Source of the DNA: Acidobacteriota bacterium
GTDB lineage: Bacteria; Acidobacteriota; UBA890; WLXD01
Reading direction: 5' to 3'
Assembly (NCBI GenBank): GCA_965248695.1
Contig: CBDFKD010000002.1
Span: 3,040,001 to 3,104,000 of the forward strand
DNA length: 64,000 nucleotides
In this document: positions 10,831 to 48,879 of the stretch, one piece after another
How the letters are laid out: every line of letters starts with the position of its first letter
Position numbering within the stretch: the first letter of the stretch is position 1
Translations under genes and position numbers: made by a program
Notes under the pieces: model-generated
What the model saw: only the letters and a program-made list of their open reading frames with translations
The model's database searches: none
Told to the model about the DNA's origin: nothing

Positions 10831-11655
10831 ATGGGCACTCTAGAGGGCAAGGTGGCGCTGGTCTCGGGAAGCGGGCGAGGCATCGGCAGGTCGATCGCCT
10901 GTAAGCTCGCAAGCGAGGGCGCGCGCGTGGTCGTGAACGATCTCGACGAGGGGCCCGCCCTGGAGACCGTGGCGCAGATCCAGACCGCTGGAGGGCAGGC
11001 AGTAGCGTGCATCGGCAACGTCACCGACGACGACTTCGGCGAACGCTTCGTGGCGACGGCGGTCGACACCTACGACGGGCTCGACATCATCGTTAACAAT
11101 GCCGGCTACACATGGGACGGCGTCATCCAGAAGATGATCGATGAGCAGTGGGAGGCGATCCTCGAGGTTCATCTGACGGCGCCGTTTCGCATCCTGCGAG
11201 CCGCTGCGGAGTACATCCGACCGAACGCCAAGGCCGAGGCCGCGGCTGGGGCCGAGGTGCACCGGAAGGTGGTGAACATCTCCTCGATCGCCGGCACCGG
11301 GGGCGGCGCCGGACAGGCCAACTACTCCACCGCCAAGGCCGGCATCCTCGGCCTGACACGGGCCATGGCCAAGGAATGGGGGCGCTATAAGGTCAACGTC
11401 AACGCGGTGGCATTCGGGCTGATCTCCACGCGGCTGACGAAGCCATGGGGCGACGAGGATGCCCAGATCGAGATCGATGGGCGCACGATCAAGGCCGGTG
11501 CGAACCGGCAACTACTTGAAGCCGCTCCGCAGTTGATCCCGCTGGGACGGCCGGGGACCCCCGAGGAGGCCGCCGGCGCCGTCTATCTGCTGTGCACCCC
11601 GGATTCAAACTACATCACCGGCCAGCTGCTGATCTGCGGCGGTGGGCTCGTATAG
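10831..11655 (+). CDS. Short-chain dehydrogenase/reductase (FabG-like)
   Basis: SGSGRGIG, NNAG, YSTAK catalytic motif. Confidence 0.92.
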   Translation: MGTLEGKVALVSGSGRGIGRSIACKLASEGARVVVNDLDEGPALETVAQIQTAGGQAVACIGNVTDDDFGERFVATAVDTYDGLDIIVNNAGYTWDGVIQKMIDEQWEAILEVHLTAPFRILRAAAEYIRPNAKAEAAAGAEVHRKVVNISSIAGTGGGAGQANYSTAKAGILGLTRAMAKEWGRYKVNVNAVAFGLISTRLTKPWGDEDAQIEIDGRTIKAGANRQLLEAAPQLIPLGRPGTPEEAAGAVYLLCTPDSNYITGQLLICGGGLV

Positions 11656-11715
11656 AGAGCCACGCCAGGCGACTCGACGAACAAGACTTAGGTACGGCGA
11701 GACAGCTGAAGCAGG

Positions 11716-13149
11716 CTACTCTCCCTCGCCCTCCATCGCCTCCACCGCGACAGCGCGCCGCGCGACGATCTCGTCGTACTCCTCCTGCGACATGTACGTC
11801 AGGTCGACCCACGCGTGCGCCATCTCGTCGACGGTACGATCGCCCCAGCCAACCCATTGCTCGTGATCGGGGTTGTTGGGGTTGTCGACCGTATTGTCGT
11901 GCCAGGCGGTGATCTTGATGATCGTGCCGGCGGGCACGACCGGGGCAACGTGGTCGGCGTAGATGTAGTTGACGTGCCAGTTCCACTGGAAGTTGTCGAC
12001 CTGGCTGAGGACCTCCTCGCGCCCATCGGGATAGATGGCCGTCATCTGCATGGCCTTGCCGCGCATGTGCATGTGCGGCTGGAAATTCTCCAGTCGCGCC
12101 GGCCACTTGATCGTGTGGAGTTGCTGGGTCACGGCAATCTCGCCGGGGGAAATGTCGATGCCGGTATCACCGCGCGCGTCCCAGAACTGCAGCCGCGTGC
12201 GGTTCCAGGGTTTGTTGTCCTTATCGTAGAACCACATCCCGATCTCGACCTGGCTGTCCTCCACCTGCTTTCCCATGGCGTGCATGTGGACCTCCCAGCG
12301 GATGCTCGAGCCGGGGAGCATCACCTTGCCGGCGCCGTCCGGAAAGATCTCTCCTGTCTTACCGACTGCCCACTCCATGAACAAACCGGGACCGCCCATG
12401 GCACTGCGACTGGTCGCCACTACCGGACCCGTGCTCATGGGTCCCGCTTCTTCGTCCTGCTCTAGAAACGCCAGCACGTGGTGGGTGATGGTAAGGGCGT
12501 CGTTGCCGACCGGGCGGATCTCGATCGCCTTCACCCAGCGCGGCTCGGTGAGGCCGGTCGGCGTCACCGGGCGGAACCACTTGTCCTGCGTCACCGCCTC
12601 CAGCGTGTAGGGCTCGGAGGCCACGATCAGGTCGGGCTCGCGACCGAAGGTGTCGAGTAGCTGCCACGAGTTGGGATCGGGAAAATCGGCCGGCGGCGGC
12701 AGGTCGGCAGCATCGCCCAGGGGGGCGCCGGCGTCGACCCACGCAACGATCGTATCGATTTGCTCGGCGTTTAGGCCCGTGTCGTTCTTGAACTCCTTGA
12801 TGCCGATGCTGCGGTTGATGTGCCAGGGAGGCATGACCCGGTTCTGGACCTTCGCCTTGATCATGGGCGCGTACGTGCGCGCCTCTTCGTAGGTCAGCAG
12901 CGACATCGGCGCGATGGACCCGGGCTGGTGGCATGCCTGGCACTTGGCGCGAAAGATCGGCGCGACGTGCTTGGCGAAGGTGACTGCGTCCGGGACCTCG
13001 TCAGCCCGCGGCAGCGCCGCCGCCAGGGGACCTGTCGAGTCGGCCTGAGCAAGTACCGCGCTGGGGATGACCGCGGTTGCCATGATCGCCATCACGATGC
13101 ACGAGCCCGCCCAGGTCCGACCACGGCTCGAAATCACTGTTTTCATCAT
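11716..13149 (-). CDS. Exported heme c + type II copper monooxygenase-like (PHM/DBM fold) protein
   Basis: Signal peptide, CQACH heme motif, THHV, EVHMH, FQPHMHMRGK and DEM in the order of the CuH/CuM ligands. Confidence 0.72.
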   Translation of the reverse strand: MMKTVISSRGRTWAGSCIVMAIMATAVIPSAVLAQADSTGPLAAALPRADEVPDAVTFAKHVAPIFRAKCQACHQPGSIAPMSLLTYEEARTYAPMIKAKVQNRVMPPWHINRSIGIKEFKNDTGLNAEQIDTIVAWVDAGAPLGDAADLPPPADFPDPNSWQLLDTFGREPDLIVASEPYTLEAVTQDKWFRPVTPTGLTEPRWVKAIEIRPVGNDALTITHHVLAFLEQDEEAGPMSTGPVVATSRSAMGGPGLFMEWAVGKTGEIFPDGAGKVMLPGSSIRWEVHMHAMGKQVEDSQVEIGMWFYDKDNKPWNRTRLQFWDARGDTGIDISPGEIAVTQQLHTIKWPARLENFQPHMHMRGKAMQMTAIYPDGREEVLSQVDNFQWNWHVNYIYADHVAPVVPAGTIIKITAWHDNTVDNPNNPDHEQWVGWGDRTVDEMAHAWVDLTYMSQEEYDEIVARRAVAVEAMEGEGE

Positions 13150-13162
13150 GCTTCTCCCGTTC

Positions 13163-14011
13163 TTATTCGATGACGGTCACTTTGACGAATCCGTTGCTCC
13201 AGCAGCACTGGGCGTGGCCCGCGCTGGCGACCCCGGAGGAATCGTTGGCTCGTACTCGGAGCACATACTCACCGGGGGTCGCGAAAACCACCGTCGTGGT
13301 CGTCTCGCCGCCGGCCGCCGGCACCTCGGCAGTGGTCTCACTGAACATCACGTCGCCGGGCCCCTGATGCTTGAACCAGGTCAGGGTGACCGGCATCCCC
13401 GCTTCTCCGAACCGCTGCACGCTACCCCGGCCCCTGCCGTCGTCGCGCGCGGCCACCATGACGCGCAGCGGCTGGGCAAGAGTCGCGGTGAGGGCCTCGC
13501 CCGTGACACCGCCCGGTCCTGCGCCCTCGCGGTCGCCGAATCGAAGCACGGGCGGCGTGTTGCCTGAATCGACCTCACCGTCGAGCGCGTCGATCTTCCA
13601 GTCCGTTTTCAGGTGCCCCGGTATCGAAAAGGTCTCGCCGCGGTTCTTGAGCGTCCAGTAAACCTTGGCGTCGCCGAAATCCGCCGGAACGCTCACGGTG
13701 AACACGCCCCAGTGTTGCCGCGCGTGGAAACGGGTCGGCTGATCGCCATCGAACTCGGCCGGCTCCATGAAGTTGTCGGGTCCGAGCGGAATCTCGAGGA
13801 TCTCCTCGGTGTTGCGGTTGTAGTAGCCGAAGGAAAGCGCGTACGTACCGTCTGGGTTCTCGTACCAGCCCTCGAACGACGGCGTGACGGTCGATCCGGC
13901 CCCGGTCGACGGCGCAAACGGCAACTGCGGTATCGGCGCCGAGCCCATGGCGGCACTCGCGCCGATCAGGGCACAGGTCGCCGCGACGGCGACCACGGTC
14001 GGTTTGCGCAT
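13163..14011 (-). CDS. Conserved exported hypothetical protein with C-terminal vicinal Cys-Cys
   Basis: Signal peptide, VTPSFEGWYENPDG...FGYYNRN, C-terminal beta-rich part, GHAQCCWSNG. RBS (caggag) upstream. Confidence 0.75.
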   Translation of the reverse strand: MRKPTVVAVAATCALIGASAAMGSAPIPQLPFAPSTGAGSTVTPSFEGWYENPDGTYALSFGYYNRNTEEILEIPLGPDNFMEPAEFDGDQPTRFHARQHWGVFTVSVPADFGDAKVYWTLKNRGETFSIPGHLKTDWKIDALDGEVDSGNTPPVLRFGDREGAGPGGVTGEALTATLAQPLRVMVAARDDGRGRGSVQRFGEAGMPVTLTWFKHQGPGDVMFSETTAEVPAAGGETTTTVVFATPGEYVLRVRANDSSGVASAGHAQCCWSNGFVKVTVIE

Positions 14012-14118
14012 GGTTCTCCTGAAAGCTCACCCGGCGTGCCGCGACCACCGCGAAAGCGGCACGCGCACAGCTATACCTCGGAGGGTCATCGGTCCGGCAC
14101 GGGAAGTCAATAGGCGCC

Positions 14119-16071
14119 TCACTCCAACGCCAGCGCCACCAGCTCACCGGCATGCCCGGTGGCGCCGACGGCGAGCACGATGTACTGCTTGCCCTCGTGC
14201 ATGTAGGTGATGGGCACACCGCTTTGGTTCGCCGGCAGCTCGATCTCCGCCAGGACCTCGCCGGTGAGCTTGTCGTAGGCGCGCAGCTTGTTGCCGCCGG
14301 CCCCGAAGCCCCCGAACAGACCTGCGCCTTCGCCGACGAAAAGCAGCGTCTTGGTAACCAGCGGCGCGCCGTGATCGGGGCGGCCAGTCGGCGGGATATC
14401 CAGTCCACGGAGCGCCGGATGCTCGCGCACGTAGTCCGGAGTCTCGCCATTGGGTCGCATCCAGGTGTGCTCGCCGGTGTTCAGATCGATGGCCGTGATA
14501 CGGCCCCACGGCGGCTTGAGCAACGGCAGACCGCGCGGCCCTCCTCCCTCGGGTAGTCGTATGCCGGTCCCTATCACGTACCGCATGTTGGAGGTGTCGG
14601 GGTCGGTCCACAGCCCGTAAACACTGGGCCTGGTAATCGAGCTGACGTAGAGAATGCCGCTCTCCGGATCCGCCGCCGCGCTGGGCCAGTTGGCGCCGCC
14701 AACGCTTCCCGGTACCGCCAGGGTTCCCTTCGTTCCGCCCTCTTCGATCAACGATGGCGGCGTGAACAGCGGTCCGAGACGAAAGCTCGCCGCCTGCTCC
14801 TTGGCCTCCTCGAAGAGCTCGGGAGTGAAGTCGATCAGGTCGTCGATCGTCACCCCCTGCCGGTCGAACGGCGCCGGCCTGGTCGGAAACGGCTGCGTCG
14901 CCGCGGTGCGCTCGCCTGGAACGTCGGTCTGCCCGACGGGGCGATCCTCGATCGGCCACACCGGTTGACCGGTGACACGGTCGAACACGAAGGTGAACGC
15001 CTGCTTGGTGACCTGAGCGACCGCCTTGATCAGGCGTCCGTCGACGTCGATGTCGAGAAGGATCGGGGCCGCGGGCAGATCGTAGTCCCAGATCCCATGA
15101 CGGACCGTCTGGAAGTGCCACACGCGCTCACCGGTGCGGGCGTCCAGACACACGAGGCTCTGTGAGAAGAGGTTGTCACCGGGACGGTGACCGCCGTAGT
15201 AGTCGCCGGTCGGGGCCTCCAGCGGCAGATAGAGGTAGCCGAGCTCGAGATCAGCGGAGAACGTCGTCCATACGCCAGCGTTCCCCGTGTAGCTGGAGGA
15301 TCCCTCGTCCCAGGTCTCGTGACCGAACTCGCCGGGCTCGGGGATCGTGTGGAAGATCCACAGGCGCTCGCCGGTACGAACGTCATAGCCGCGGATATGG
15401 CCGGCCGGCATCTCCTTGGTAGGGGGCCTGCTACCGGACGGAAAGGCCGCGCCGACGACGACCACGTCACCGACTACGACCGCCGGCGAGCTCGACCCGA
15501 TGGTGGCCGTGTCGATGTCGAAATCGCGGTCAAGCTCGCGCCTCAGGTCCACCGTGCCGTCGACGCCGAAGTCCGGCAACCGCCTGCCCGTCTTGGCGCT
15601 CAGCGCCACCAGGTGGTAGGCCGGCGTGATCAGAAAGATGGTCTCTTGATCGCCGTTCGACCAGTAAGCGACCCCGCGCCCCGAATTGGGACGCGGCGCG
15701 GTCCCACCGCGCCGCCCTTCGTCCATGCGGTACGCCCACAGCGTCTCGCCGGTGGCGGCATCGATCGCGACCACTGCGCGCCGGGTTCCCGCCGTCGCGT
15801 AGAGCACGCCGTTCACCATGAGCGGCGTCGTGCGGTAGTTGAACTCCGGTCGCGGGCCGAAGTTGTCGGCTTTCCACCGCCAGACGATCTGGAGATCGTT
15901 CACGTTGTCGCGATCGATCTGATCGAGTGGCGCATATCTGGTGCTCGCCGCGTCGCCGCCGTAGTAGTGCCACCCGACCTCGCCGTCACCGGACTGCGCG
16001 ACACCGGTCGCGGCGCTGGCAAGGGCCGCCATCATCACCAGGCCAACGCGAGTCGCCTGCGCGCTCATCAC
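14119..16071 (-). CDS. PQQ-dependent dehydrogenase (quinoprotein glucose dehydrogenase-like, periplasmic)
   Basis: YYGGDAASTRYAPLDQI, TPLMVNG, RGVAYW, HFQTVRHGIWDYDLP, GGANW, PITYMHEGKQY. Confidence 0.92.
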   Translation of the reverse strand: MMSAQATRVGLVMMAALASAATGVAQSGDGEVGWHYYGGDAASTRYAPLDQIDRDNVNDLQIVWRWKADNFGPRPEFNYRTTPLMVNGVLYATAGTRRAVVAIDAATGETLWAYRMDEGRRGGTAPRPNSGRGVAYWSNGDQETIFLITPAYHLVALSAKTGRRLPDFGVDGTVDLRRELDRDFDIDTATIGSSSPAVVVGDVVVVGAAFPSGSRPPTKEMPAGHIRGYDVRTGERLWIFHTIPEPGEFGHETWDEGSSSYTGNAGVWTTFSADLELGYLYLPLEAPTGDYYGGHRPGDNLFSQSLVCLDARTGERVWHFQTVRHGIWDYDLPAAPILLDIDVDGRLIKAVAQVTKQAFTFVFDRVTGQPVWPIEDRPVGQTDVPGERTAATQPFPTRPAPFDRQGVTIDDLIDFTPELFEEAKEQAASFRLGPLFTPPSLIEEGGTKGTLAVPGSVGGANWPSAAADPESGILYVSSITRPSVYGLWTDPDTSNMRYVIGTGIRLPEGGGPRGLPLLKPPWGRITAIDLNTGEHTWMRPNGETPDYVREHPALRGLDIPPTGRPDHGAPLVTKTLLFVGEGAGLFGGFGAGGNKLRAYDKLTGEVLAEIELPANQSGVPITYMHEGKQYIVLAVGATGHAGELVALALE

Positions 16072-16514
16072 TGGGCGGCAGCAGCGGTGAGACGGATCTC
16101 GAACAACGCCTCCTGATCCGGAGCCAGCTCCTCGTCCCCTGCCGGCATGCGGTTGGCGCGCAGCATCATCGCTATGAGGTCGACCGTCTCGCGACCTGAC
16201 AAGCGGCCCGGATCGTCCTCCGGCATGGTCTCTTGAATGATCGCGTACAGGATGCCGAGGGATTCCTCACGCCAGTACTGCATGAAGTCCCGGCCCATGA
16301 GGCTGATGGAGGTTTCACCACCACGCAGGTCGACCCCGTGACAGGTACCGCATTCACGCTCGTACGTACGCAGACCTCGCTCGGCTTGCTCGTCGGTGTA
16401 GACACCGTCCTCGGCGCTGACCTGCGGCATCCCGGTGATCGTCACGTCCGCGGCCAGCGTCGCCCCGGCAAGGGCGAGCGTGCCAGCCAGCGCGCTCAGC
16501 ACCGTCTTCGTCAC
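16068..16514 (-). CDS. Monoheme cytochrome c
   Basis: Signal peptide, GVYTDEQAERG, CGTCHG, distal TMP. Stop overlaps the PQQ dehydrogenase start. Confidence 0.88.
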   Translation of the reverse strand: MTKTVLSALAGTLALAGATLAADVTITGMPQVSAEDGVYTDEQAERGLRTYERECGTCHGVDLRGGETSISLMGRDFMQYWREESLGILYAIIQETMPEDDPGRLSGRETVDLIAMMLRANRMPAGDEELAPDQEALFEIRLTAAAAQ

Positions 16515-16727
16515 CTGCGTCGTCTCCGATTCGGATGGCGGCAATCCGCCAACTCCGATGCCAAACCCGGAAACACTACCCTACTGCGCCGCGGGGCCGG
16601 TAGACGATCCGGCTCGCCGTCGAGTTCACCAACGCCGATGCCTTCGAGGCCGAGCGCGCCTCGACAACAGGACGCCGACACACCGATCCGACTCGAAAGA
16701 AGTAGCGTTGGAGTCGGAGATGATGCC

Positions 16728-17675
16728 GTGAGAATCACCGAGCGAATCGCGACCGCGACCGAGCCCTTCTTCAGCTTCGAGCTGCTGCCGCCGCTGCGCG
16801 GCGGGACCATCGCGCCCTTGCTGGAGACCGTCGAGGCACTGCTGCCCTATCGCCCCGCCTTCATCGACGTCACCAGCCATGCTGGCGTGGTGACTTATGA
16901 AGAGAGCCCCGACGGGCTACAGCGACATATTGTCCGCCGTCGACCCGGGACACTCGCCGCCAGCACGCTGATTCAGCACAAGTACGGCATCGCCACCGTC
17001 CCGCATGTCGTATGCAAGGGGTTCACGTGTCAGGAGACCGAGGACTTCCTCATCGACGCGAGCTATGTCGGAATCGAAACCCTGCTGGCGATAGCAGGTG
17101 ACGATCACGGCTACGACAAGCCGCTTACCGACAACCGAACCCGCAACGAGAACGCCCTCGAGCTCGTGCAGCAGATCCGTGCTCTCGGCGCTGGTAAGTA
17201 CGTCTCAACGCCGCGTGAGGGAGCACCTATCGGGTTCGAGGTCGGCGTCGCCGGCTACCCGGAAAAGCACATCCAGAGCCCCAACATGGAATCCGACGTC
17301 CGCTGGCTGAAGCGCAAGCTCGATGCTGGCGCCGATTACGTCGTCACTCAGATGTTCTTCAACAACCAGAGCTATCACGACTTCGTCCAGCTGTGTCGCG
17401 ACACGGGGATCGACGCGCCGATCATCCCGGCGTTGAAAGTCCTGACCGCCAAGCGGCAGCTGACGATGCTGCCGAAGACGTTCTTCATCCACCTGCCCCC
17501 GGAGCTCGTGGACGCGGTGGAATCCGCAGCCGACGACGAGGTGCCCGAAGTCGGTATCGAATGGGCCCGGCGACAGATCGAGGATCTGCTGATCCACGAC
17601 GCCCCGGCGATCCATCTGTACGTGATGCAGAACCCACGCCCGACGCTGCGACTGCTGGAGATGCTGCGGCGCTGA
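16728..17675 (+). CDS. metF: 5,10-methylenetetrahydrofolate reductase
   Basis: FSFELLPP, FIDVT, GVAGYPEKH, KLDAGADYVVTQMFF. GTG start after GGAG. Confidence 0.93.
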   Translation: MRITERIATATEPFFSFELLPPLRGGTIAPLLETVEALLPYRPAFIDVTSHAGVVTYEESPDGLQRHIVRRRPGTLAASTLIQHKYGIATVPHVVCKGFTCQETEDFLIDASYVGIETLLAIAGDDHGYDKPLTDNRTRNENALELVQQIRALGAGKYVSTPREGAPIGFEVGVAGYPEKHIQSPNMESDVRWLKRKLDAGADYVVTQMFFNNQSYHDFVQLCRDTGIDAPIIPALKVLTAKRQLTMLPKTFFIHLPPELVDAVESAADDEVPEVGIEWARRQIEDLLIHDAPAIHLYVMQNPRPTLRLLEMLRR

Positions 17676-17765
17676 CGTCACCGGACGGTGCGTCTCGCGA
17701 CCGCTCACCGGCCGGCCGGCTGTCGCGGCCGCGTCAACCACTTCCCGGCTTGATAGAGTCGGCCG

Positions 17766-19451
17766 GTGGTCGAGCACACGCCGAGCAAGGAACAAACCTG
17801 GGACGTCATCATCGTCGGTGGCGGCTCAGCCGGCTGCGTCCTGGCCAACCGCCTCAGCGACGACCCCACGATCCGCGTGCTGATGCTCGAAGCGGGACCG
17901 GTGGACCACGGTTGGGATTTCCGCCTCCACATGCCCGCCGCCCTGGCCTGGCCGCTGGCCGGGCGTACGTACAACTGGTGGTACGAGTCCGATCCGGAGC
18001 CCGGCATGGGCGGTCGTCGTATCTACCAGCCTCGCGGCAAGGTGCTCGGCGGCTCCAGCTCGATCAACGGCATGGTCTGGATTCGCGGCAACCCGCTCGA
18101 CTTCGACCGATGGGGGAGCGAACCGGGGCTGGCAAGCTGGGACTTCGCCCACTGTCTGCCCTACTTCCGGCGCCTGGAGCAGCGGCTCGCCGGCGGCGAC
18201 GAGTACCGCGGCGACACCGGCCCGGTGTATGTGACAACGCCGCGTGGCGGCAACCCCCTCGGGGCGGCCTTCCTCGCTGCGGCACAACAGGCCGGGCACG
18301 CGCTCAGCGACGATGTGAACGGCTACCGGCAAGAGGGCTTCTCGACCTTCGATCGCACTACCTACCGCGGCCGCCGCTGGAGTGCGGCGCGCGCCTACTA
18401 CCATCCCGTCAGGCGACGCCAGAATCTGACCCTCAAGAGTGGGGCGCTGACGACGCGCATCCTCTTCGAGGGGCGCCGCGCGGTGGGAGTGGTGTATCGG
18501 AGCGGCGGCCGCCAACACACCGCTCACGGCAGCGAGATCATCTGCTGCGGTGGCGCCATCAACTCGCCCCAGTTGCTGCAGCTCTCGGGCGTCGGTTCCG
18601 CCGAGCGTCTGCAGGCGCTCGGGATCGAGGTGGTCCAGGATCTACCCGGCGTCGGCGAGGATCTCCAGGACCATCTGGAGGTCTACGTACAGTACGCCTG
18701 CACGCAGCCGGTGAGCCTGTACCCGGCGCTGGCCTGGTGGCGACAGCCATGGATAGGCGCCAAGTGGCTCTTCGGCCGCAGCGGCATCGGGGCCAGCAAC
18801 CAGTTCGAGGGCGGCGGCTTCATCCGCAGCAACGACAACGTGGACATTCCGAACGTGCAGTTTCACTTTCTTCCCATCGCCATCCGCTACGACGGCTTAG
18901 CCCCCAACCCCGGCCATGGCTATCAGGTTCACGTCGGACCGACGCTCTCCGACGCTCGTGGGTGGGTGCGGATCCGTTCCTCGGATCCCGACGAGCACCC
19001 TTCGATCCGCTTCAACTACCTCTCCACGGAGCAGGACCGGCGCGAGTGGGTCGAGTCGGTCCGCTGCGCGCGCGACATCATGACCCAGCCGGCGTTCGAG
19101 CCGTTCCGCGGCGCGGAGCTCGTGCCCGGCGATGACGTCGAGACGGACGAGGAAATCCTCGACTTCGTCGCTCGCGACGGTGAGAGCGCCTACCACCCCA
19201 GCTGCACCTGCCGAATGGGCACGGACCCCGATGCCGTGACCGACGCCGAGCTACGAGTGCGTGGCCTGGAGGGACTTCGCGTCGTCGACGCCTCGATCAT
19301 GCCTTCGATCACCAACGGCAACATCTACGCGCCGGTGCTGATGATCGCCGAGAAGGCCGCCGACATCATCCGCGGTGATACGGCTCTGGATCCCTCGACT
19401 GCCCGGTTCTACCGGCATGAAGTGGCCCCCGAGCCCCGGGCGTCGTCGTAG
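17766..19451 (+). CDS. betA: Choline dehydrogenase (GMC oxidoreductase)
   Basis: GGGSAGCVLANRLS, RGKVLGGSSSINGM, LQDHLEVYVQYAC, SNQFEGGGF, SAYHPSCTC, NGNIYAPV. Confidence 0.9.
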   Translation: MVEHTPSKEQTWDVIIVGGGSAGCVLANRLSDDPTIRVLMLEAGPVDHGWDFRLHMPAALAWPLAGRTYNWWYESDPEPGMGGRRIYQPRGKVLGGSSSINGMVWIRGNPLDFDRWGSEPGLASWDFAHCLPYFRRLEQRLAGGDEYRGDTGPVYVTTPRGGNPLGAAFLAAAQQAGHALSDDVNGYRQEGFSTFDRTTYRGRRWSAARAYYHPVRRRQNLTLKSGALTTRILFEGRRAVGVVYRSGGRQHTAHGSEIICCGGAINSPQLLQLSGVGSAERLQALGIEVVQDLPGVGEDLQDHLEVYVQYACTQPVSLYPALAWWRQPWIGAKWLFGRSGIGASNQFEGGGFIRSNDNVDIPNVQFHFLPIAIRYDGLAPNPGHGYQVHVGPTLSDARGWVRIRSSDPDEHPSIRFNYLSTEQDRREWVESVRCARDIMTQPAFEPFRGAELVPGDDVETDEEILDFVARDGESAYHPSCTCRMGTDPDAVTDAELRVRGLEGLRVVDASIMPSITNGNIYAPVLMIAEKAADIIRGDTALDPSTARFYRHEVAPEPRASS

Positions 19452-22037: not shown

Positions 22038-24236
22038 TCACCCCGCCAGTGCTTCGCGCACCCGTTGCCGATTGAACGGCATGTGTCGAAGCCGCCGCCC
22101 GGTCATCGCGCCGAACGCGTTGGCGATCGCCGGAGCCACCCCGAGCACGGCCCGATCGCCGATCCCTACCGGGGAACGATCGGTGCCAAGCAGCTCGGCG
22201 TGCACCTCCGGCGCATCGGCCATCCGCATCACCGTGTAGTCGTGAAAGTTGGACTGCTCTACCTGACCGCCCTTCATGGTGATGCGCTCGTACAGAGCGT
22301 TGCTGGCACCGTAGATGACAGCGCCTTCGATCTGACCGATAACGTTTCTGGGCTGCACCGCGATCCCGAGATCAACCGCCATCCAGACGTTGGGTACGCG
22401 GATCGCGCCGCTGGTCTCGTCGACCGTGACCTCGGCAATCGTCGCCATGATCGTTCCGAACGATGGCGTATAGGCCACGCCGAGCGCGCGCCCAGCGGCA
22501 GCTCCCCAGTCCGCCATGTCGGCAGCCGCCCGCAATACCCGGCGTGCCCGCTCTGAGCTCAGGTACTGCAGACGGAATTCCAGCGGATTCGCCCCCTCGG
22601 CGACAGCCACCTCGTCGAGGAAGCACTCGGAGGCGAACGCCTGCTGCGCCGACGCGACGCCGCGCATCCAGGACACCCGCACTGGGATCGAGCGGCGGAT
22701 GCGCTGCGTACGACCGCCGAAGTCGTAGGCGAACTCCGCGCCCATGCCCCAGGTCACCGCTGCGTGCTGCTCGGGCGAACCGTCGCGCACGGCGGCCGCC
22801 AGCCGCGGGTCCGCCCGGCTCGCCACGTCCTCCCCTACGGCACGGTGCCTCCAGTCGACGATCCCGCCCTGATCGTCGACGCCACAGTGCAGGCAGTGGG
22901 CGCTGACGGGCTTGAAGCGGCCGAACTGAACGTCGTGCTCGCGAGTCCAGATCGCCTTCACCGGTCGGCCGACGGCGCGCGACAACAGCACCGCATCGAG
23001 GGCCCAGTCGTGGTCCATATCGCTGCGCCGACCGAACCCGCCACCGAGGAACATGCGATGCAGCGTTACGTCAGCCGTCGGAATTCCGAGGCTCTCGGCG
23101 GCGACGTGAACTAGGTGCGTCGGGGCTTGCGTACCGGCCCATATCTCAACGCGCCGAGCCTCTGAGTCGAACAGCGCAACGGCGTTGAGGGGTTCCATCT
23201 GCGCCTGATATATGAAGTCGGTACGGTACTCCTGCTCGTGGATGCTCGCGCCCGCGGTGCCCTCCTGGGGTGGCTGATCGCGGGCGATTTCCATGTGCGC
23301 CTCGAGCTCGGCGGCCGAATCGAGCCTATCGCCGTCGGCGGCGCTCCAATCGATCTGCAGCAGCTCACCGGCAGCAATGGCGCCCTCGTACGTCTCGCTC
23401 ACCACGCCGATCCCGTCCGGCAGCGCCACCACGTCGAGCACCCCCGGAACGGCGAGGGCGGGCGCATCGTCGACCCGCACCACCGTGGCTCCTGGTACCG
23501 GCGAGCGGGTCACCGTCGCGTAGACCATGCCCGGGAGGCTGACGTCGATGCTGTAATGCGCCTCCCCGGTAACCTTGGACGGAATGTCGCGGCGCGGCTG
23601 GTCGTGGCCGATGAGCCGGAAGCTGGCCGGATCCTTGAGGTCGGCATCGGAGATCTCCGGCATGGTCGCGGGCAGCTGGGCTGCAGCGGCAACCTCCCCA
23701 TAGCTAATGCGACGACCGCTACGTGCGTGGATCACCACGCTGGGCTCGGTGCCAAGCTCCTCGATCGGCACAGCCCAGGCAGCCGCAACGTGGTCCAGCA
23801 GCACACGCCGCGCCTGGGCGCCCTGGCGCCGCAGTAGATCGTAATAGCCGGCGACCGCCGCGCTGGACTCGGTCATCAGCAACCCGTAGTACCCCGGATT
23901 GCCGTAGGGCTCGTCGAGCGACGGGCTGAGCTCGATGCGGACATCGTTCCAGTCGGCATCGAGCTCCTCGGCGAAGATGATCGGCAGGGCGGTCATCGAT
24001 CCCTGCCCCATCTCGTCGGCAGGGGCGAGGATGGTGACGGTCCCGTCCGCTGCGATGTTTGCCCAGACGTTGGGGACGAGTGGCTCCGTCACCGCAGCGG
24101 CCGCGGCGGTCGCCCGGAACGGGTTGCCCGGCACCGTCACGACAAGCCCGAACGTCAGCCCGGCAGCACTCCGCAAGACGCTCCGCCGGTTCAGCAGCGA
24201 GTTCGCCTCGAGACCTCGGGTTTCCTGGTCCGCCAT
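22038..24236 (-). CDS. Isoquinoline 1-oxidoreductase beta-like molybdopterin subunit (XDH family), Tat-exported
   Basis: NRRSVL Tat motif, EMGQG, AEELDADW, QMEPLNA, LGGGFGRR, WTREHD, QSNFHDY. Confidence 0.88.
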   Translation of the reverse strand: MADQETRGLEANSLLNRRSVLRSAAGLTFGLVVTVPGNPFRATAAAAAVTEPLVPNVWANIAADGTVTILAPADEMGQGSMTALPIIFAEELDADWNDVRIELSPSLDEPYGNPGYYGLLMTESSAAVAGYYDLLRRQGAQARRVLLDHVAAAWAVPIEELGTEPSVVIHARSGRRISYGEVAAAAQLPATMPEISDADLKDPASFRLIGHDQPRRDIPSKVTGEAHYSIDVSLPGMVYATVTRSPVPGATVVRVDDAPALAVPGVLDVVALPDGIGVVSETYEGAIAAGELLQIDWSAADGDRLDSAAELEAHMEIARDQPPQEGTAGASIHEQEYRTDFIYQAQMEPLNAVALFDSEARRVEIWAGTQAPTHLVHVAAESLGIPTADVTLHRMFLGGGFGRRSDMDHDWALDAVLLSRAVGRPVKAIWTREHDVQFGRFKPVSAHCLHCGVDDQGGIVDWRHRAVGEDVASRADPRLAAAVRDGSPEQHAAVTWGMGAEFAYDFGGRTQRIRRSIPVRVSWMRGVASAQQAFASECFLDEVAVAEGANPLEFRLQYLSSERARRVLRAAADMADWGAAAGRALGVAYTPSFGTIMATIAEVTVDETSGAIRVPNVWMAVDLGIAVQPRNVIGQIEGAVIYGASNALYERITMKGGQVEQSNFHDYTVMRMADAPEVHAELLGTDRSPVGIGDRAVLGVAPAIANAFGAMTGRRLRHMPFNRQRVREALAG

Positions 24237-24688
24237 CAGGCCGAGTCCGACGCGACGCGCTGGATGGCGCGAATGACGCGCGGGTAGGTTCCGCAGCGGC
24301 AGATGTTCTGCATGTGGGCGACGATCTCGCCGCGGCTGGGCTGCGGGTTGCGCGCCAGCAGATCAGCGGCGCTCATGATCATCCCCGGCTGACAGTAGCC
24401 ACACTGGGGCACCTGCTCGTCAACCCAGGCATCGAGCAGCGCGTGACGCATCGCTGCCAGACCCTCGATGGTCGTGATCTCGTGGCCGGCAGCAGCGCTG
24501 ATCGGCGTCTGACAGCTCAGCGCGCGCCCGCCGTCAATGTGAACCGTGCACGCACGGCAGACTCCCAATCCGCAGCCGAACTTCGTGCCCGTAAGCCCGA
24601 TGTGATCGCGCAACACCCAGAGGAGCGGCGCGTCAGGCTCGGCTTCGACGGCCTGGGAGCTGCCGTTGACGGTGATGGTGAACCGCAT
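24236..24688 (-). CDS. Isoquinoline 1-oxidoreductase alpha-like [2Fe-2S] subunit
   Basis: [43 protein letters not shown]. Confidence 0.92.
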
Positions 24689-27300: not shown

Positions 27301-27562
27301 CAACGATCGTCGCGTGTGCTCTCCACTCCCGAATGAGGTGAGGTGGCCGAACGCAAGGCCCGAGCCCTGGAATACGCAGCGCGTACCGTAGCACGCTTTT
27401 GTCGGCATTTGAAAATGTCAACGGTTAGCGGCGGTACACTCAGGCGCAAGAAGCCGATGAGTATGGAATAGTGGTCCCACGATCCACCGAAGAGTCATCG
27501 ATCTGAGCCGGGCGGCGACGGCCCGCCTGTTGACACTCCATACAGCCCAGGAGCGGAGCCAG

Positions 27563-30019
27563 ATGAAAGCGCGCGCCGCGATACTCGCGGCTATGGGCCT
27601 GTTCCTCGCCGACGCCGGCGCTGCAACCGGAACCAGAGAGCTCGGAACGGCACGGATTGGAGACCCCGCCAGTGCCGCATTCGGGCGCACTGTAGAAGGC
27701 TCGCGGCCGTCCGCTGAAGACGAGCTGATCCAGCGATACTGTCTGCGCTGTCACAATGACCAGCTGCTGCGCGGCAACATGTCGCTAGAACGCTTCGATG
27801 CAGCGTCGCCGGAGGGCAGCGCCGAGCTGGCCGAGAAGATGATCGTCAAGCTGCGTGCAGGGATGATGCCGCCCCCGAACGCGTGGCGCCCGCCCAACGA
27901 GGCCGTCTTCGCGCTGGTGGAGTTGCTCGAGTCACGCTTGGACGCGGCCGATGCCGCGGCCCCGAACCCTGGCAGCCGATCGTTTCAACGCCTCAACCAG
28001 GCGGAGTACTCGCAGTCCGTGCGCCATCTGCTCGGGCTGGAGATCGACGCCGCCGACTATCTGCCGCTGGATACCAAGAGCGCCAACTTCGACAACATTG
28101 CCGATGTCCAGATGCTGTCGCCGATGCTGCTCGACGCCTACATGAACGCCGCCGCCGAGATCAGTCGACTGGCGGTGGGCGATGCCCGCACGACACCGAC
28201 GTCGGCGACCTACACCAACCCCGGCTACACCTCGCAATGGGACCGTGTCGAGGGCGCGCCGTTCGGCACCCGCGGCGGGATCAGCGTCAGCCACATCTTC
28301 CCGGCCGACGGTGACTACGAGTTCCGCCTGGCCTTCGAGCACACCACGACCGGGGGCTACTTCGGCGGCGTGACCAAGGGGGAGCAGATCGAGGTTTCGA
28401 TCGACGGTGCCCGCGCCGCGCTCCTCGATGTCGACCGCTGGATGAGCGTCGCGGATCCCAATGGCGTCAACATGCGCACCGAGCCGATCTTCGTGCGTGC
28501 CGGACCCCGCCGGGTAACTGCGGCGTTCATCAAGCAGAGCGAGGGGCCGCTGGAGGACCTGCTGTCACCGCACGACTGGTCGCTGACCGACCGCCAGATC
28601 GGGGTGAGCGGCTACGGCGTCACCTCGCTGGCGCACCTGAAGGACCTCGTGGTGGCCGGGCCGTTCCGAGCCACCGGGGTGTCCGACAACCCCGTGCGCC
28701 GGCAGCTCTTCAGCTGCCGGCCGACGGTGCGTGAGGAACAACGCCCCTGCGCCAGCGAGATCGTTTCCCGTCTCGCCTCCCGGGCGTTCCGCAGATCGCT
28801 GACCGACGGCGACCTCGACGCGCTGATGGGGTTCTACGAGGCAGGCGCCGATCTCGGCGGCTTCGAACAGGGCATCCGTCATGCGCTGGAGGCGATCCTC
28901 GCCAGTCCGGACTTCATCTTCCGCTTCGAGGAGGCACCGGCGAGCGTCACGCCCGGCGCGGTGTATCGCCTCAGTGACGAGGATCTCGCCGCCAGGCTTT
29001 CGTTCTTCCTGTGGGGCTCACCACCCGACGACGAACTGTCGGAGCTGGCGGCCGACGACGGGCTGTCGGTTCCCGAGACGCTCGAGGCACAGGTGCGTCG
29101 GATGCTGGCCGACCGCCGCGCCGAGGCGCTCGGCACGCGCTTCGCGGCGCAGTGGCTGCGCCTCGACGACCTCGATGCGGTGCACCCGGATCGGCTGCTC
29201 TACCCCGACTTTCACCAGCAACTGGCCGATGCGATGCGGCGCGAGACGGAGCTGTTCTTCAGCGGCCTGGTGGAGAACGATCGCAGCGTTCTCGATCTGT
29301 ACCGTGCCGACTACTCGTACCTGAACGGGCGTCTGGCGCGGCACTACGGCATACCGGGGGTCATCGGCGAACACTTCCGCCAGGTCGCCTATCCCGACGA
29401 CACGCGGCGCGGCCTGCTCGGTCACGGCAGCATCTTGACGCTGACCTCGCACGCTGGCCGCACCTCGCCGGTGCTGCGCGGCAAGTGGGTCATGGAAGTG
29501 CTGCTCGGCACGCCGCCTCCTCCTCCCCCGCCCGGCATCCCGGACTTCGACGAGACCGCAAGCGTGGCCAACGGGCGCGTTCTGACCACGCGCGAGCGCA
29601 TGGAAGAGCATCGCTCGAACCCGTCGTGTAGCTCCTGCCATCGATTCATCGACCCCATCGGGCTGGCGCTGGACAACTACGACGTCACCGGCCGCTGGCG
29701 GATTCGCGAGCACGGCGTCCCGCTGGATACCCACGGCGAGATGTATGACGGAACACCGGTCGACAGCCCGGCCTCGCTGCAGGACGCTTTGCTGATGCGC
29801 CCGGTGCCCTTAGTGCGGAATTTCACCACGAATTTGATGGCCTACGCCCTCGGGCGGCGCCTGGAGTATTACGATCAACCAACAGTGCGACGGATCGCTC
29901 GCGGTGCGGAGCTCCAGGGCTATCGCATTTCGGCGTTCATCCTGGGGGTCGTTCAGAGCGACGCCTTCCAGATGCAGCGCGCCGGCGCCGTTGCCGACGA
30001 CACGTCATCACATGAGTAG
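27563..30019 (+). CDS. DUF1592/DUF1588/DUF1587/DUF1595/DUF1585 multidomain cytochrome c protein
   Basis: CLRCH, KLRAGMMPP, RLNQAEY, LAARLSFFLWGSPPD, FAAQWL, RTSPVLRGKWV, PPPPPP, CSSCH...DPIGLALDNYD, YALGR. Confidence 0.9.
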   Translation: MKARAAILAAMGLFLADAGAATGTRELGTARIGDPASAAFGRTVEGSRPSAEDELIQRYCLRCHNDQLLRGNMSLERFDAASPEGSAELAEKMIVKLRAGMMPPPNAWRPPNEAVFALVELLESRLDAADAAAPNPGSRSFQRLNQAEYSQSVRHLLGLEIDAADYLPLDTKSANFDNIADVQMLSPMLLDAYMNAAAEISRLAVGDARTTPTSATYTNPGYTSQWDRVEGAPFGTRGGISVSHIFPADGDYEFRLAFEHTTTGGYFGGVTKGEQIEVSIDGARAALLDVDRWMSVADPNGVNMRTEPIFVRAGPRRVTAAFIKQSEGPLEDLLSPHDWSLTDRQIGVSGYGVTSLAHLKDLVVAGPFRATGVSDNPVRRQLFSCRPTVREEQRPCASEIVSRLASRAFRRSLTDGDLDALMGFYEAGADLGGFEQGIRHALEAILASPDFIFRFEEAPASVTPGAVYRLSDEDLAARLSFFLWGSPPDDELSELAADDGLSVPETLEAQVRRMLADRRAEALGTRFAAQWLRLDDLDAVHPDRLLYPDFHQQLADAMRRETELFFSGLVENDRSVLDLYRADYSYLNGRLARHYGIPGVIGEHFRQVAYPDDTRRGLLGHGSILTLTSHAGRTSPVLRGKWVMEVLLGTPPPPPPPGIPDFDETASVANGRVLTTRERMEEHRSNPSCSSCHRFIDPIGLALDNYDVTGRWRIREHGVPLDTHGEMYDGTPVDSPASLQDALLMRPVPLVRNFTTNLMAYALGRRLEYYDQPTVRRIARGAELQGYRISAFILGVVQSDAFQMQRAGAVADDTSSHE

Positions 30020-30060
30020 GCTACCGAGACCATGAGGTTGTTGCCCCGGCGGAGTCGAGG

Positions 30061-31470
30061 ATGCTGATCACCGGAAAGCACGTTCAACGCCGCACGTTCC
30101 TACGTGGCGCCGGAGCAACCCTTGCTCTGCCGTTCCTGGACGCCATGGTGCCCGCCGGCCGCCTGGCTACGGCGGCGACCCGAGAGGCCGAAAAGACCCG
30201 CCTGGTGGCAATCGAGATGGTGCACGGCGCCGCCGGCTGCAATCAGTGGGGCGCGACCCAGAACCTCTGGTCACCGGCCGCCGCGGGTGGAGACTTCGAT
30301 CTCGACCCGACAGCCCTGGTGTCGCTCGATCCGTGGCGCGACTACCTGACGATCATCAGCAACACCGACGTGCGCATGGCGGAGGCCTTCCGGCCACACG
30401 AGATCGGCGGCGACCACTTCCGCTCCAGCGCCGTGTTCCTCACGCAGTCGCATCCGAAGCAGACCGAAGGCTCCGACGTGCTCGTGGGTACCTCGCTGGA
30501 CCAGTTGTACGCCCAGCGGTTCGGGCAGGACACGCCGATTCCCTCGATGCAGCTGTGCATCGAGAACATCAACCAGTCCGGCGGATGTGCATACGGGTAC
30601 ACGTGTGTCTATACGGACTCGATCAGCTGGGCGTCGCCGACCGAGCCACTGCCGGTGATCCGCGACCCGCGCGTAGCCTTCGAGCAGTTGTTCGGGGCCG
30701 GCGGCACGCCAGAGGAGCGCGCAGCGCGGCGGCGCGCGAGCCGCAGCATCCTCGATTGGGTCACCGGGCGAGTCGCCGAGCTGCGGCGAGATCTGGGCCC
30801 CAACGATCGCCATCGATTGGATCGCTACCTGGAGAACGTGCGCGAGATCGAGCGCCGCATACAACGCACCGAGGCACGCAACACCAGCGGCGCCGAACGC
30901 GCCATCCCCGAAGCCCCGGCCGGCGTGCCCGACTCGTTCGAAGCGCACACCAAGCTCATGTTCGACCTGCAGGCACTAGCGTTCGCCTCCGATACCACGC
31001 GCGTCTTTTCCTTCAAGATGGGACGCGACTCCTCGGCGCGCGTGTTCCCGGAGAGCGGTACCGACAAGCCGTTCCACCCGGCGTCACACCATGGCGGCAA
31101 AGAAGACGCGATCCGCGACTTCTACTTGCTCAACCGCTACCACGTCAGCATGTTGCCGTACTTCCTCGAGAAGCTGGCCAGTATCGATGAAGGTGGCACC
31201 CATCTGCTGGACAAGACGATGATCGTCTACGGGTCGCCGATGGCAGATAGCAACCTGCACAACCACCGACGGGCTCCGCTGATCGTGCTCGGGGGCGCCG
31301 GCGGCAAGCTCGACGGCAACCTGCACGTCGAAGCGCCGGACGGTACGCCGATGGCCAACGCCATGTTGACCCTGCTGCACAAGCTGGGACATGAGGATCT
31401 CGCCAGCTTTGGCGACTCGTCCGGCGAGTTGTCCCTGTCGCTGTCAGCCACCTCCGCATCGGCGGACTGA
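30061..31470 (+). CDS. DUF1552 (HXXSHH) protein, Tat-exported
   Basis: RRTFLRGAGATLALPFLDAMVP, SLDQ, CAYGYTCVY, HPASHH, LLDKTMIVYGS, NLHNH. Confidence 0.9.
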   Translation: MLITGKHVQRRTFLRGAGATLALPFLDAMVPAGRLATAATREAEKTRLVAIEMVHGAAGCNQWGATQNLWSPAAAGGDFDLDPTALVSLDPWRDYLTIISNTDVRMAEAFRPHEIGGDHFRSSAVFLTQSHPKQTEGSDVLVGTSLDQLYAQRFGQDTPIPSMQLCIENINQSGGCAYGYTCVYTDSISWASPTEPLPVIRDPRVAFEQLFGAGGTPEERAARRRASRSILDWVTGRVAELRRDLGPNDRHRLDRYLENVREIERRIQRTEARNTSGAERAIPEAPAGVPDSFEAHTKLMFDLQALAFASDTTRVFSFKMGRDSSARVFPESGTDKPFHPASHHGGKEDAIRDFYLLNRYHVSMLPYFLEKLASIDEGGTHLLDKTMIVYGSPMADSNLHNHRRAPLIVLGGAGGKLDGNLHVEAPDGTPMANAMLTLLHKLGHEDLASFGDSSGELSLSLSATSASAD

Positions 31471-31492
31471 TCCGCAACGAGTGCCGGCTTTG

Positions 31493-33534: not shown

Positions 33535-34002
<468 letters not shown>

Positions 34003-34007
34003 CTGCG

Positions 34008-36365
<2,358 letters not shown>

Positions 36366-36376
36366 AGGAGAGCACG

Positions 36377-37171
36377 ATGCAAGACTTCAACTTCCATCGT
36401 CCGGGCTCGATCGACGAGGCCAAGCAGGCGCTCCAGCAGGCGGTCGAAGGCAAGCTGCTAGCGGGTGGTCAAAGTCTGCTGCCGGTGATGAAGCTCGATC
36501 TGGCGGCGCCGAGCGATCTGATCAGCCTGCGCGACGTCCCCGCCCTAGGAGGCATCGAGGTCCAGGGCGATCAGCTGTTCATCGGTGCAGCTGCCACCCA
36601 CTCGGAGGTCGCCGCATCGGACGTCGTCAGGGGAGCGATCCCGGCGCTGGCCGATCTGGCCGGCGGCATCGGCGATCCACAGGTGCGCAACCGCGGCACC
36701 CTCGGTGGCTCGGTGGCGCATGCGGATCCGGCCGCCGACTACCCGGCGGCGCTGCTGGCACTCGATGCCACCGTGGTGACCGACGCCAGGGAGATCGCTG
36801 CGCACGAGTTCCTCGGCGGGATGTTCGAGACGCCGCTGGCGGATGACGAGATCATCACAGCGGTGCGTTTCAACGTGCCGCAGGCGGCCGCCTATGCGAA
36901 GTTCGCCAACCCGGCGTCGAAGTACGCCCTGGTCGGCGTGATGGTGTCGCGCACAGGCGACGGTGTCCGCGTCGGTGTGACCGGGGCCGGCTACGGCGCG
37001 TTCCGAGCCGCAGCGCTCGAGGCCGCGCTCGACGCCGATTTCAGCGCCGCAGGAATCGACGGCGTGGCCATCGACAGCACTGACCTGGCCGACGACGGCG
37101 ATGCCAGCGCCGAGTACCGGGCCCATTTGATCAAGGTGATGACCCAGCGAGCGGTGGAGGCGTGCGGGTAG
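36377..37171 (+). CDS. coxM: CoxM-like FAD subunit
   Basis: [38 protein letters not shown]. Confidence 0.9.
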
Positions 37172-38097
37172 GCGCACTGCCGGAATCGGTCGACGCGACG
37201 TCCGAGCTGCTGCTGCAGCATGACTACATCGCCGACCGATCGCTCGCCACGGCGGTGTACCTGTCGCTTGCCCTCGGCCGCCCGTTGTTCGTCGAGGGCG
37301 AGGCCGGCGTTGGCAAGACCGAGATCGCCAAGGTGCTGGCGGAGGCGCTCGACCGACGTCTGATCCGGCTGCAGTGCTACGAGGGGCTCGACGTCGCCGC
37401 CGCCGTCTACGAGTGGAACTACGCCCGGCAGATGATAGAGATCCGTCTCGCCGAGGCTGCCGGCGACACCGATCGCGCCGAGTTGGAGGCGGGCATCTTC
37501 TCGGAGCGCTTCCTGATCCGACGGCCACTGCTGGAGGCACTGGAGCCGCACGAGGAAGGGCCCCCGGTACTGCTGATCGACGAGCTCGATCGTGCCGACG
37601 AGCCCTTCGAGGCGTTTCTGCTGGAGGTACTGTCGGAGTTCCAGGTAACCGTCCCGGAGCTCGGCGCGTTTCGCGCCGAGACCCCGCCGGTAGTGGTGAT
37701 CACCTCCAACCGCACGCGCGAGATCCATGACGCGCTCAAGCGCCGCTGCCTGTACTGCTGGATCGACTACCCGGATGCTGCCCGCGAGCTGAAGATCCTG
37801 CGGGCTCGTGCCCCCGAGGCGCGCGAGGGACTGACGCGCCAGGTCGTCGGCTTCGTGCAGGCGCTGCGAGAGCGCGAGCTGTTCAAGCTGCCCGGGGTGG
37901 CCGAATCGATCGACTGGACGCGCGCGCTGCAGGTGCTCGACCGCACCACTCTCGATGCCGACAGCGTCGATGACACCCTGGGCGTGCTGCTCAAGTACGA
38001 AGATGATCTGTCGCGCATTCGGGGCGAGGAGGCCGCGGGCATTCTCCGTCAGGTCGAGGCGGAGCTCGCGGCGGCCCCCGTAGAGCCCGGGGCGTGA
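37162..38097 (+). CDS. coxD: CoxD MoxR-type AAA+ ATPase
   Basis: [43 protein letters not shown]. Confidence 0.9.
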
Positions 38098-43920: not shown

Positions 43921-44050
43921 CTCTTCAACCTCTCGATGGTGGCAAACAGGATGAGCGTTCCGAACCGGAACCGTGGCAGCGTAACCTCACAGACTGGTTG
44001 GCGGAAGGGGCCGTGCGGGGCCGGCCTGAGGTCTGGTAGGCTTGCCGGCC

Positions 44051-44548: not shown

Positions 44549-44562
44549 GATGAGCACGCCGA

Positions 44563-48877: not shown

Positions 48878-48879
48878 GA

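Follow-up and report, generated by a model that had tools for sequence, protein, structure and literature searches.

A cytochrome c-fused bacterial protein with a predicted PHM/DBM-type dicopper fold is encoded together with a conserved partner protein

Do four adjacent genes for exported proteins in an Acidobacteriota bacterium make up one periplasmic copper monooxygenase system driven by a pyrroloquinoline quinone (PQQ)-dependent dehydrogenase? The question arises from a 64,000-nucleotide stretch of contig CBDFKD010000002.1 (assembly GCA_965248695.1, positions 3,040,001 to 3,104,000), here called the window. A first-pass annotation of this stretch had proposed that electrons pass from a PQQ dehydrogenase through a small cytochrome c and a fused heme to copper centers like those of the peptidylglycine and dopamine monooxygenases (PHM and DBM; the latter is also called DBH). 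PHM and DBH, animal neuroendocrine enzymes known from textbooks, each have two mononuclear copper sites on either side of a solvent cleft, about 11 Å from each other, and how electrons get to these separated coppers and from one to the other is still debated. The analysis reported here centers on two of the four genes, those for the proteins p282 and p477. We place just on the probable side the reading that the two-gene operon p282-p477 encodes a periplasmic two-subunit heme c/dicopper monooxygenase with the PHM/DBM fold, fed by cytochrome c instead of ascorbate.

The four open reading frames (ORFs) follow one another on the minus strand, all in the same direction, in the order cytochrome c, PQQ dehydrogenase, p282, and p477, and all four proteins have N termini that resemble Sec signal peptides when judged by eye. 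The co-oriented exported proteins are present as the first-pass annotation had described them, and so are the motifs listed for them. The last gene encodes p477 (11716..13149, minus strand; 477 amino acids), which carries CQACH at residues 70 to 74, HH at 223 and 224, HMH at 288 to 290, a second HMH at 359 to 361, and EM at 442 and 443. Its heme c domain occupies about residues 55 to 145 (12715..12987, minus strand; CQACH at nucleotides 12928 to 12942), and the Pfam scan of p477 gave a Cytochrome_CBB3 match of 19.8 bits, under the cut-off of 27. A PHM/DBM-like two-domain copper region at about residues 170 to 455 (11785..12642, minus strand) was delimited from a profile alignment and the conserved ligand columns.

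Conservation was assessed in an alignment of 62 sequences, made up of p477, 15 of 120 close matches, and 46 of 150 representatives, down to about 30% identity. The representatives were 406 to 515 amino acids long and most had a single long match; longer and fragmentary ones were left out. C70, C73, H74, M106, H223, H288, H359, and H361 were invariant, H224 and M443 were kept in at least 90% of the sequences, and H290 was invariant in the close clade only. Since the heme and copper ligand columns are conserved to this degree, the motifs are not chance occurrences. M106, which lies in an MPPWH motif, is a candidate distal heme ligand and the presumed axial methionine.

When the profile of this alignment was compared with the Protein Data Bank (PDB), it matched human DBH (7.8e-11) and rat PHM (1.2e-10), with all six copper ligands aligned. 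The local motifs pair as HHvlaf with VHHMLLF, qvHy with QVHY, PHmHlrGk with HTHHLGK, and dem with DEM. In this alignment, H223 and H224 correspond to the HH of VHHMLLF and H288 to the histidine of QVHY, which makes them CuH-type ligands; H359 and H361 correspond to the HTH of PHM and M443 to the methionine of DEMC, which makes them CuM-type ligands. We take the CuH ligands of PHM to be H107, H108, and H172 and its CuM ligands to be H242, H244, and M314. The earlier assignment of three histidines to CuH and of two histidines and a methionine to CuM is borne out by the profile alignment and by the fold.

An AlphaFold (AF2) model of p477 built from the same alignment had a predicted local distance difference test (pLDDT) score of 88.1 and a predicted template modeling (pTM) score of 0.83, with low confidence only in residues 1 to 46. 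The comparison with PHM and DBM that had been suggested for 11716..13149 was made with this model at the level of the fold. In a Foldseek search of the PDB, all of the top 30 or so matches were PHM or DBH (E values from 9e-13 to 6e-9; probability, 1.00; target template modeling score, 0.56 to 0.65; about 300 aligned columns), at about 14 to 16% identity in the fold alignments. Judged from the profile alignment and the predicted model, p477 very probably joins a c-type cytochrome to a PHM/DBM-fold domain in which the ligand set is complete. We infer that heme and copper occupy these sites.

The gene directly upstream encodes p282 (13163..14011, minus strand; 282 amino acids), an exported protein with two predicted beta-sandwich domains and an HAQCCW motif at nucleotides 13199 to 13216. 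A spacer of 13 nucleotides (13150..13162, minus strand), with GGGAG before the p477 ATG, separates the two genes, and because the spacing is tight, it suggests translational coupling of p282 and p477. The pairing was followed in a set of loci obtained by scanning one genome per species, which gave at least 592 pattern matches and at least 585 confirmed relatives; the 80 best of these served as loci. Close relatives are overrepresented in this sample, and QPHMHMRG was among the scan patterns, so that ligand conservation within the 80 loci is partly circular. By tblastn, 77 of the 80 loci have p282 immediately upstream of p477 and in the same orientation. L052 has only part of the p282 ORF, and the contigs of L057 and L067 stop short of the gene, so that adjacency holds in 78 of 78 assessable loci. 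The first-pass annotation had treated this Cys-Cys protein as one link among four; it is instead the obligate partner of p477, and the conserved unit is p282 plus p477.

Near its C terminus, p282 carries the invariant loop GHAQCCW(S/T)N (residues 265 to 273). The motif H[AS]QCCW[TS]N was found in 76 of 77 orthologous p282 ORFs, the exception being L007. In that locus (L007:7130-8101) the orthologue has no QCCW and ends in unrelated residues at the 3' end, which suggests a frameshift or an assembly error. ORF clustering of the 80 loci and a Pfam scan were also used to look for other conserved neighbors. A sodium:sulfate symporter, an amidase, a creatininase-family protein, a thioredoxin-like protein, a thioesterase, a metallo-beta-lactamase-fold protein, and a trio of ankyrin, DUF1552, and DUF1592 proteins were each found in part of the tree, and none was universal like p282.

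The two proteins also occur as single chains. Fusions in the order p282 then p477 (P0391, P0401, and P0126) and in the order p477 then p282 (P0402, P0134, and P0132) emerged when longer proteins were searched and when the 150 p477 representatives were scanned with a p282 profile. In P0124 (697 amino acids), the cytochrome/PHM-like part is inserted between the N- and C-terminal domains of a p282-type protein, giving a split or permuted fusion, and the fragments P0164 and P0171 also hold a piece of p282. No Pfam, NCBIfam, or PDB family matched p282, except for a weak PKD match, and a 24-sequence p282 profile found no relative in the PDB. A fold search returned only generic Ig or macroglobulin-like beta-sandwiches, which we do not interpret, and protein atlas matches were to unnamed or PKD-labeled clusters only.

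Complex prediction with the partner, which had been suggested as a check, gave a positive result for p282. The interaction prediction score from aligned errors (ipSAE) for p282 with p477 was 0.80 in three of three runs, compared with 0.00 for the best of three controls; contact agreement between runs was at least 85%, and the partner pLDDT was at least 82. In the calibration sets, 116 of 157 solved complexes and 2 of 215 mismatched pairs attained an ipSAE of 0.80, counts that apply only roughly here because our own alignments were used. On p477 the predicted interface comprises residues 186 to 189, 291, several in 328 to 335, and most of 427 to 440. Residue 291 adjoins H288 and H290, and residues 436 to 440 just precede M443. 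On p282 the interface includes residues 265 to 267 of the GHAQCCW loop. It is likely that p282 and p477 form a complex, and we read the predicted interface as placing p282 across the mouth of the p477 interdomain cleft.

The remaining two genes encode a soluble PQQ-dependent dehydrogenase of the eight-bladed propeller family (14119..16071, minus strand; 650 amino acids) and a small exported monoheme cytochrome c (16068..16544, minus strand; 158 amino acids), with CGTCH at residues 65 to 69 (nucleotides 16338 to 16352). An alternative GTG start of the cytochrome c gene lies at 16514, the end coordinate used in the first-pass annotation. The dehydrogenase matched Pfam PQQ (PF01011) over profile positions 1 to 595 of 595 (634.7 bits, 2.3e-190). 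Its score against NCBIfam TIGR03074, the family of membrane-bound glucose/quinate/shikimate PQQ dehydrogenases, was 384.5 bits, under the cut-off of 832.65, with a match that begins at profile position 149; in place of the N-terminal membrane domain of TIGR03074 it has a signal-peptide-like N terminus. Its best PDB matches were quinohemoprotein alcohol dehydrogenases, over the N-terminal half only (5.6e-36). The small cytochrome c matched Pfam Cytochrome_CBB3 at 27.3 bits, against a cut-off of 27. The cytochrome c stop and the dehydrogenase start overlap in GTGA (4 nucleotides, or 1 nucleotide with the next ATG). Quinoprotein dehydrogenases are usually tightly coupled with a small cytochrome c gene, and because these two genes overlap, as is usual for quinoproteins, they form a unit of their own.

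The gap of 107 nucleotides between the dehydrogenase gene and p282 (14012..14118, minus strand) is present as had been noted. A promoter and terminator scan of 11400-17000 found no terminator-like and no sigma-70-like site, and the predicted fold of the gap was not more stable than that of shuffled sequence (z = +1.0). Since the pair stands alone in 75 of 80 loci, the gap may hold its own promoter and is a candidate promoter region of p282-p477.

Using tblastn over 8-kb flanks, we found a PQQ dehydrogenase next to the p282-p477 pair in only 5 of the 80 loci. The synteny check thus gave an outcome that the first-pass annotation had itself named as refuting, in that the four genes are not co-conserved: the dehydrogenase and cytochrome c are accessory, lineage-specific neighbors outside the conserved core. 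Wherever the dehydrogenase occurs within 8 kb, it is directly adjacent to and co-oriented with the pair (five of five loci). L001 and L002 have the gene order of the window, and L076, L077, and L078 have the order p282, p477, PQQ dehydrogenase, cytochrome c. The cytochrome c gene accompanies the dehydrogenase in four of the five; the fifth, L077, ends inside the PQQ gene. Between cytochrome c and p282, L002 has two PQQ dehydrogenase genes in tandem (L002:2868-6979), paralogues whose products are 84% and 79% identical to the dehydrogenase of the window. In a FastTree phylogeny of p477, built from 79 locus sequences plus that of the window (L019 was left out, its ORF having no heme motif), the PQQ-bearing loci fall into two well-supported separate clades, which requires at least two changes. 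The sequences indicate at least two separate arrivals of the PQQ/cytochrome c pair beside the core pair, with differing gene orders as the result. In some lineages the PQQ module may supply electrons as an optional partner, or it may consume the p477 product. A functional link in some lineages has modest support; a dedicated link is rather doubtful.

How might the two-subunit enzyme work? A periplasmic electron carrier would reduce the fused c-type heme of p477, and this heme would in turn reduce the CuH-type site (H223, H224, and H288), taking the place of ascorbate. An electron would then cross the interdomain cleft to the CuM-type site (H359, H361, and M443), where O2 would be activated and a C-H bond of a substrate other than peptidylglycine hydroxylated. 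From its predicted place over the cleft mouth, p282 probably shapes or gates the substrate site. In the genome studied here, the PQQ dehydrogenase and its cytochrome c may feed p477, or they may oxidize its alcohol product and return the electrons; the cytochrome c of the dehydrogenase is a plausible electron donor. Because the heme domain (CxxCH...M) is fused to the copper domain and invariant, its sequence suggests a protein electron donor instead of ascorbate. By analogy with PHM and DBM, we give cytochrome-fed monooxygenase chemistry as such an even chance. The part of the first-pass scheme that saw an ascorbate-independent, cytochrome-fed copper oxygenase is reasonable in view of the fused heme domain; the part that made it a four-gene PQQ chain is not supported in that form, the PQQ dehydrogenase and cytochrome c lying beside the pair in only 5 of 80 loci.

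Several results weigh against the reading of p282-p477 as a heme c/dicopper monooxygenase. Searched alone, p477 matched neither Cu2-monooxygenase family of Pfam (PF01082, PF03712), even at E ≤ 10, and a single-sequence phmmer search of the PDB gave chance matches only, near E = 1. Homology to PHM and DBH is visible only via the profile and via the fold. The residues that we take to bind peptidylglycine in PHM (R240, N316, and Y318) align with Q357, H445, and W447 of p477, all three invariant in the close clade. Because the PHM residues are not kept, p477 is, on its sequence, not a peptidylglycine hydroxylase, and its substrate differs; because they are replaced, oxygenase chemistry is assumed for p477 by analogy only. 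Electron flow in the opposite sense, out of a copper oxidase or dehydrogenase through the fused cytochrome c, would be equally possible. The stand-alone AF2 model of p282 is poor (pLDDT 55.8, with the N-terminal domain under 50); only its C-terminal Ig-like domain is confident, and residues 260 to 269 have pLDDT values below 50. The fused p477-then-p282 forms and the split form have no Cys-Cys loop, so that the loop is not essential to the partnership. Finally, neither the PQQ dehydrogenase nor this cytochrome c lies within 8 kb in 75 of the 80 loci.

Three other explanations bear on the same observations. The four proteins could be one functional system, a dedicated chain from the PQQ dehydrogenase through the small cytochrome c and the fused heme to the copper centers. 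This is improbable, since in 75 of 80 loci the pair occurs with neither a PQQ dehydrogenase nor this cytochrome c in the 8 kb around it, the upstream and downstream neighbors vary between lineages, and the cytochrome c/PQQ overlap marks those two genes as a separate unit. The chain nevertheless has points in its favor: all four genes point the same way, the end of the cytochrome c gene overlaps the start of the PQQ gene, no terminator-like site was found in the 107-nucleotide gap, the set of four is seen again in L001 and L002 and, differently ordered, in L076 to L078, in two separate clades, and no PQQ homologue lies elsewhere in the 8-kb flanks of the other 75 loci. Alternatively, p477 could be a non-oxygenase, either an oxidase or dehydrogenase that passes electrons from a substrate through copper and heme c to the respiratory chain or a reductase of nitrite, NO, or peroxide. 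A fused cytochrome c is able to work in either direction; in copper nitrite reductases with a fused cytochrome c, heme c feeds copper. The fold matches include PHM crystal structures with bound nitrite or azide, which shows no more than that the site can accommodate such ligands. An AhpC/TSA-redoxin domain in 8 of 30 distant relatives could point to thiol or peroxide chemistry, although the redoxin domain of one of them, P0173, is nearest to ResA (37 bits, far under the cut-off of 170), which makes a maturation role equally plausible; ResA is a thiol-disulfide oxidoreductase of cytochrome c maturation. An alternative complex III in the window (44042-49398) would connect the quinol pool with periplasmic cytochromes c. 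With the full His3 and His2Met ligand set of the O2-activating PHM/DBM enzymes kept, we regard a non-oxygenase as unlikely.

A further explanation takes p282 as the substrate: p477 would modify the HAQCCW loop, by Cys or Trp hydroxylation or by a cross-link, into a protein-derived cofactor or a vicinal-disulfide redox site. The strict one-to-one pairing with p477 agrees with this, as do the loop motif in 76 of 77 orthologues and the position of loop residues 265 to 267 in the confident interface, facing the region beside the copper ligands. A histidine stands beside the Cys-Cys pair in the p282-then-p477 paired and fused forms (GHAQCC, GYHCC) and is absent from fusions with other enzymes (GFQCC, PDQCC). 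The idea is very improbable all the same, given that the p477-then-p282 fusions and the split form have no Cys-Cys loop altogether, that QCCW modules also sit on bicupins, NHL propellers, and an amidohydrolase, all without a PHM-like domain, and that loop residues 260 to 269 stay below a pLDDT of 50 in the stand-alone model.

The QCCW module has a distribution of its own. A p282-type module with QCCW(T/S)N is found at the N terminus of P0392 to P0400, fused to bicupins (P0392 to P0397), NHL/SGL propellers (the NHL propellers P0398 and P0399), and an amidohydrolase (P0400); these are typically metal-dependent enzymes. A parallel with PHM and PAL was considered and rejected: the NHL part of P0398 matched the PAL domain of PAM (3fvz) at 9.3e-18, and generic NHL proteins matched better, at 1.6e-32. 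As a long shot, the QCCW module could act as an accessory domain for periplasmic metalloenzymes in general, capping or servicing their active sites, with its vicinal Cys pair as a redox or metal-handling element; p282 and p477 would then be a new two-subunit class of bacterial heme-copper monooxygenase that relies on the loop or installs a Cys/Trp-derived cofactor there.

The p477 family is large. Among 8,000 scored candidates, 7,979 were homologues at E ≤ 1e-3, and the 50%-identity representatives numbered 14,155 at E ≤ 1e-3 and 1,508 at E ≤ 1e-30. The 120 homologues listed were 61 to 100% identical to p477, and the few with names came from Gemmatimonadota and Acidobacteriota. The source records label the homologues as hypothetical or "cytochrome c," with no functional names. 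NCBIfam holds no model for the family or its fused forms, and p477 alone matched no NCBIfam family. Distant relatives with the cytochrome c and PHM-like core were 33 to 41% identical, with E values of about 1e-52 to 1e-109. In a Pfam scan of 30 such relatives, Cu2_monoox_C (PF03712) was found in 14, of which P0169, P0173, and P0207 scored above the cut-off, and Cu2_monooxygen (PF01082) was found in 7, none above the cut-off. An N-terminal AhpC/TSA-redoxin domain precedes the core in eight of the 30 (P0123, P0173, P0182, P0194, P0210, P0216, P0225, and P0229), and some relatives have TPR, ankyrin, EF-hand, or hydrolase tails. In the literature as far as it was accessible, with subscription journals outside its coverage, no publication was found on bacterial cytochrome c-fused PHM-like proteins.

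Elsewhere in the window, a methylenetetrahydrofolate reductase gene and a choline dehydrogenase gene (BetA, 848 bits; cut-off, 605) at 16233-19451 are divergent from the cytochrome c gene, and genes of both kinds also flank the cluster in L001 and L002. In the longest ORF of the reductase (480 amino acids), about 170 N-terminal residues lie outside the Pfam match and the ORF overlaps the cytochrome c gene; for these reasons, its true start is probably further downstream. A second molybdopterin subunit and a 2Fe-2S subunit are encoded at 22038-24688, and a cluster of the CO-dehydrogenase/xanthine-dehydrogenase type, with large molybdopterin, FAD-binding, AAA, VWA CoxE-like, and CoxG-like proteins, lies at 33666-39886. 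Between them, at 27530-33391 and about 14 kb from the p282-p477 pair, is a trio that encodes a PSD/PSCyt3 multi-DUF protein (DUF1592/1588/1585/1587/1595; 829 amino acids), a DUF1552 "HXXSHH" protein (469 amino acids), and an ankyrin-repeat protein (666 amino acids). In 16 to 18 of the 80 loci, mainly those of Palauibacter-type Gemmatimonadota, homologues of this trio follow downstream within 8 kb of the pair and are encoded on the other strand. The alternative complex III-like operon (44042-49398) encodes cytochrome c7-type, molybdopterin-family, 4Fe-4S, NrfD-type, and ActD proteins and would link quinol oxidation to periplasmic cytochromes c.

If the monooxygenase reading is true, the pair would point to an unrecognized oxygenase activity that is widespread in Gemmatimonadota and Acidobacteriota, Candidatus Palauibacter lineages among them. 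The family very probably forms a large bacterial branch of the PHM/DBH fold, in which the cytochrome c donor is part of the chain and the partner protein is constant. If its copper sites are active, it would offer a soluble, ascorbate-free bacterial system for electron transfer from heme to CuH to CuM.

Compared with PHM (PDB 1PHM, 1OPM, and 1SDW) and DBH (4ZEL), p477 has in common the two beta-sandwich domains, the six aligned copper ligands in the pattern His-His...His and His-x-His...Met, and the local motifs HHxxxF, xVHY, HxHxxGK, and DEM. It differs in being bacterial and periplasmic, in having an N-terminal c-type heme domain that would take the place of soluble ascorbate, and in having an obligate beta-sandwich partner protein. 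Whereas PHM is rich in disulfides, the only cysteines of p477 are those of CxxCH and one in the signal peptide. The accessory genes resemble methanol and ethanol dehydrogenase-type quinoproteins, in which a PQQ propeller likewise comes with a translationally coupled small cytochrome c. The dehydrogenase most resembles the soluble propeller portion of glucose/quinate/shikimate enzymes, with a score under the family cut-off.

The same logic is seen in fungal pairs (PMC5960967), where the electrons of a dehydrogenase reach a mononuclear copper oxygenase, the lytic polysaccharide monooxygenase (LPMO), by way of a heme. These pairs, with cellobiose dehydrogenase or PQQ pyranose dehydrogenase, serve as a working analogy and not as a sign of family membership. 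Their folds are unrelated (the LPMO histidine brace versus PHM sites), they use heme b and not heme c, and the dehydrogenase is only an optional neighbor here, in 5 of 80 loci. Also close to p477 are its AhpC/TSA-cytochrome c-Cu2_monoox relatives, which have the cytochrome c and PHM-like core in common with it and carry extra fused domains, whereas p477 has no redoxin domain. The fold and the ligands are known already, and relatives show weak Pfam matches. What distinguishes p477 from known enzymes is that it combines a fused heme c with an obligate QCCW partner and has lost the residues for peptidylglycine binding.

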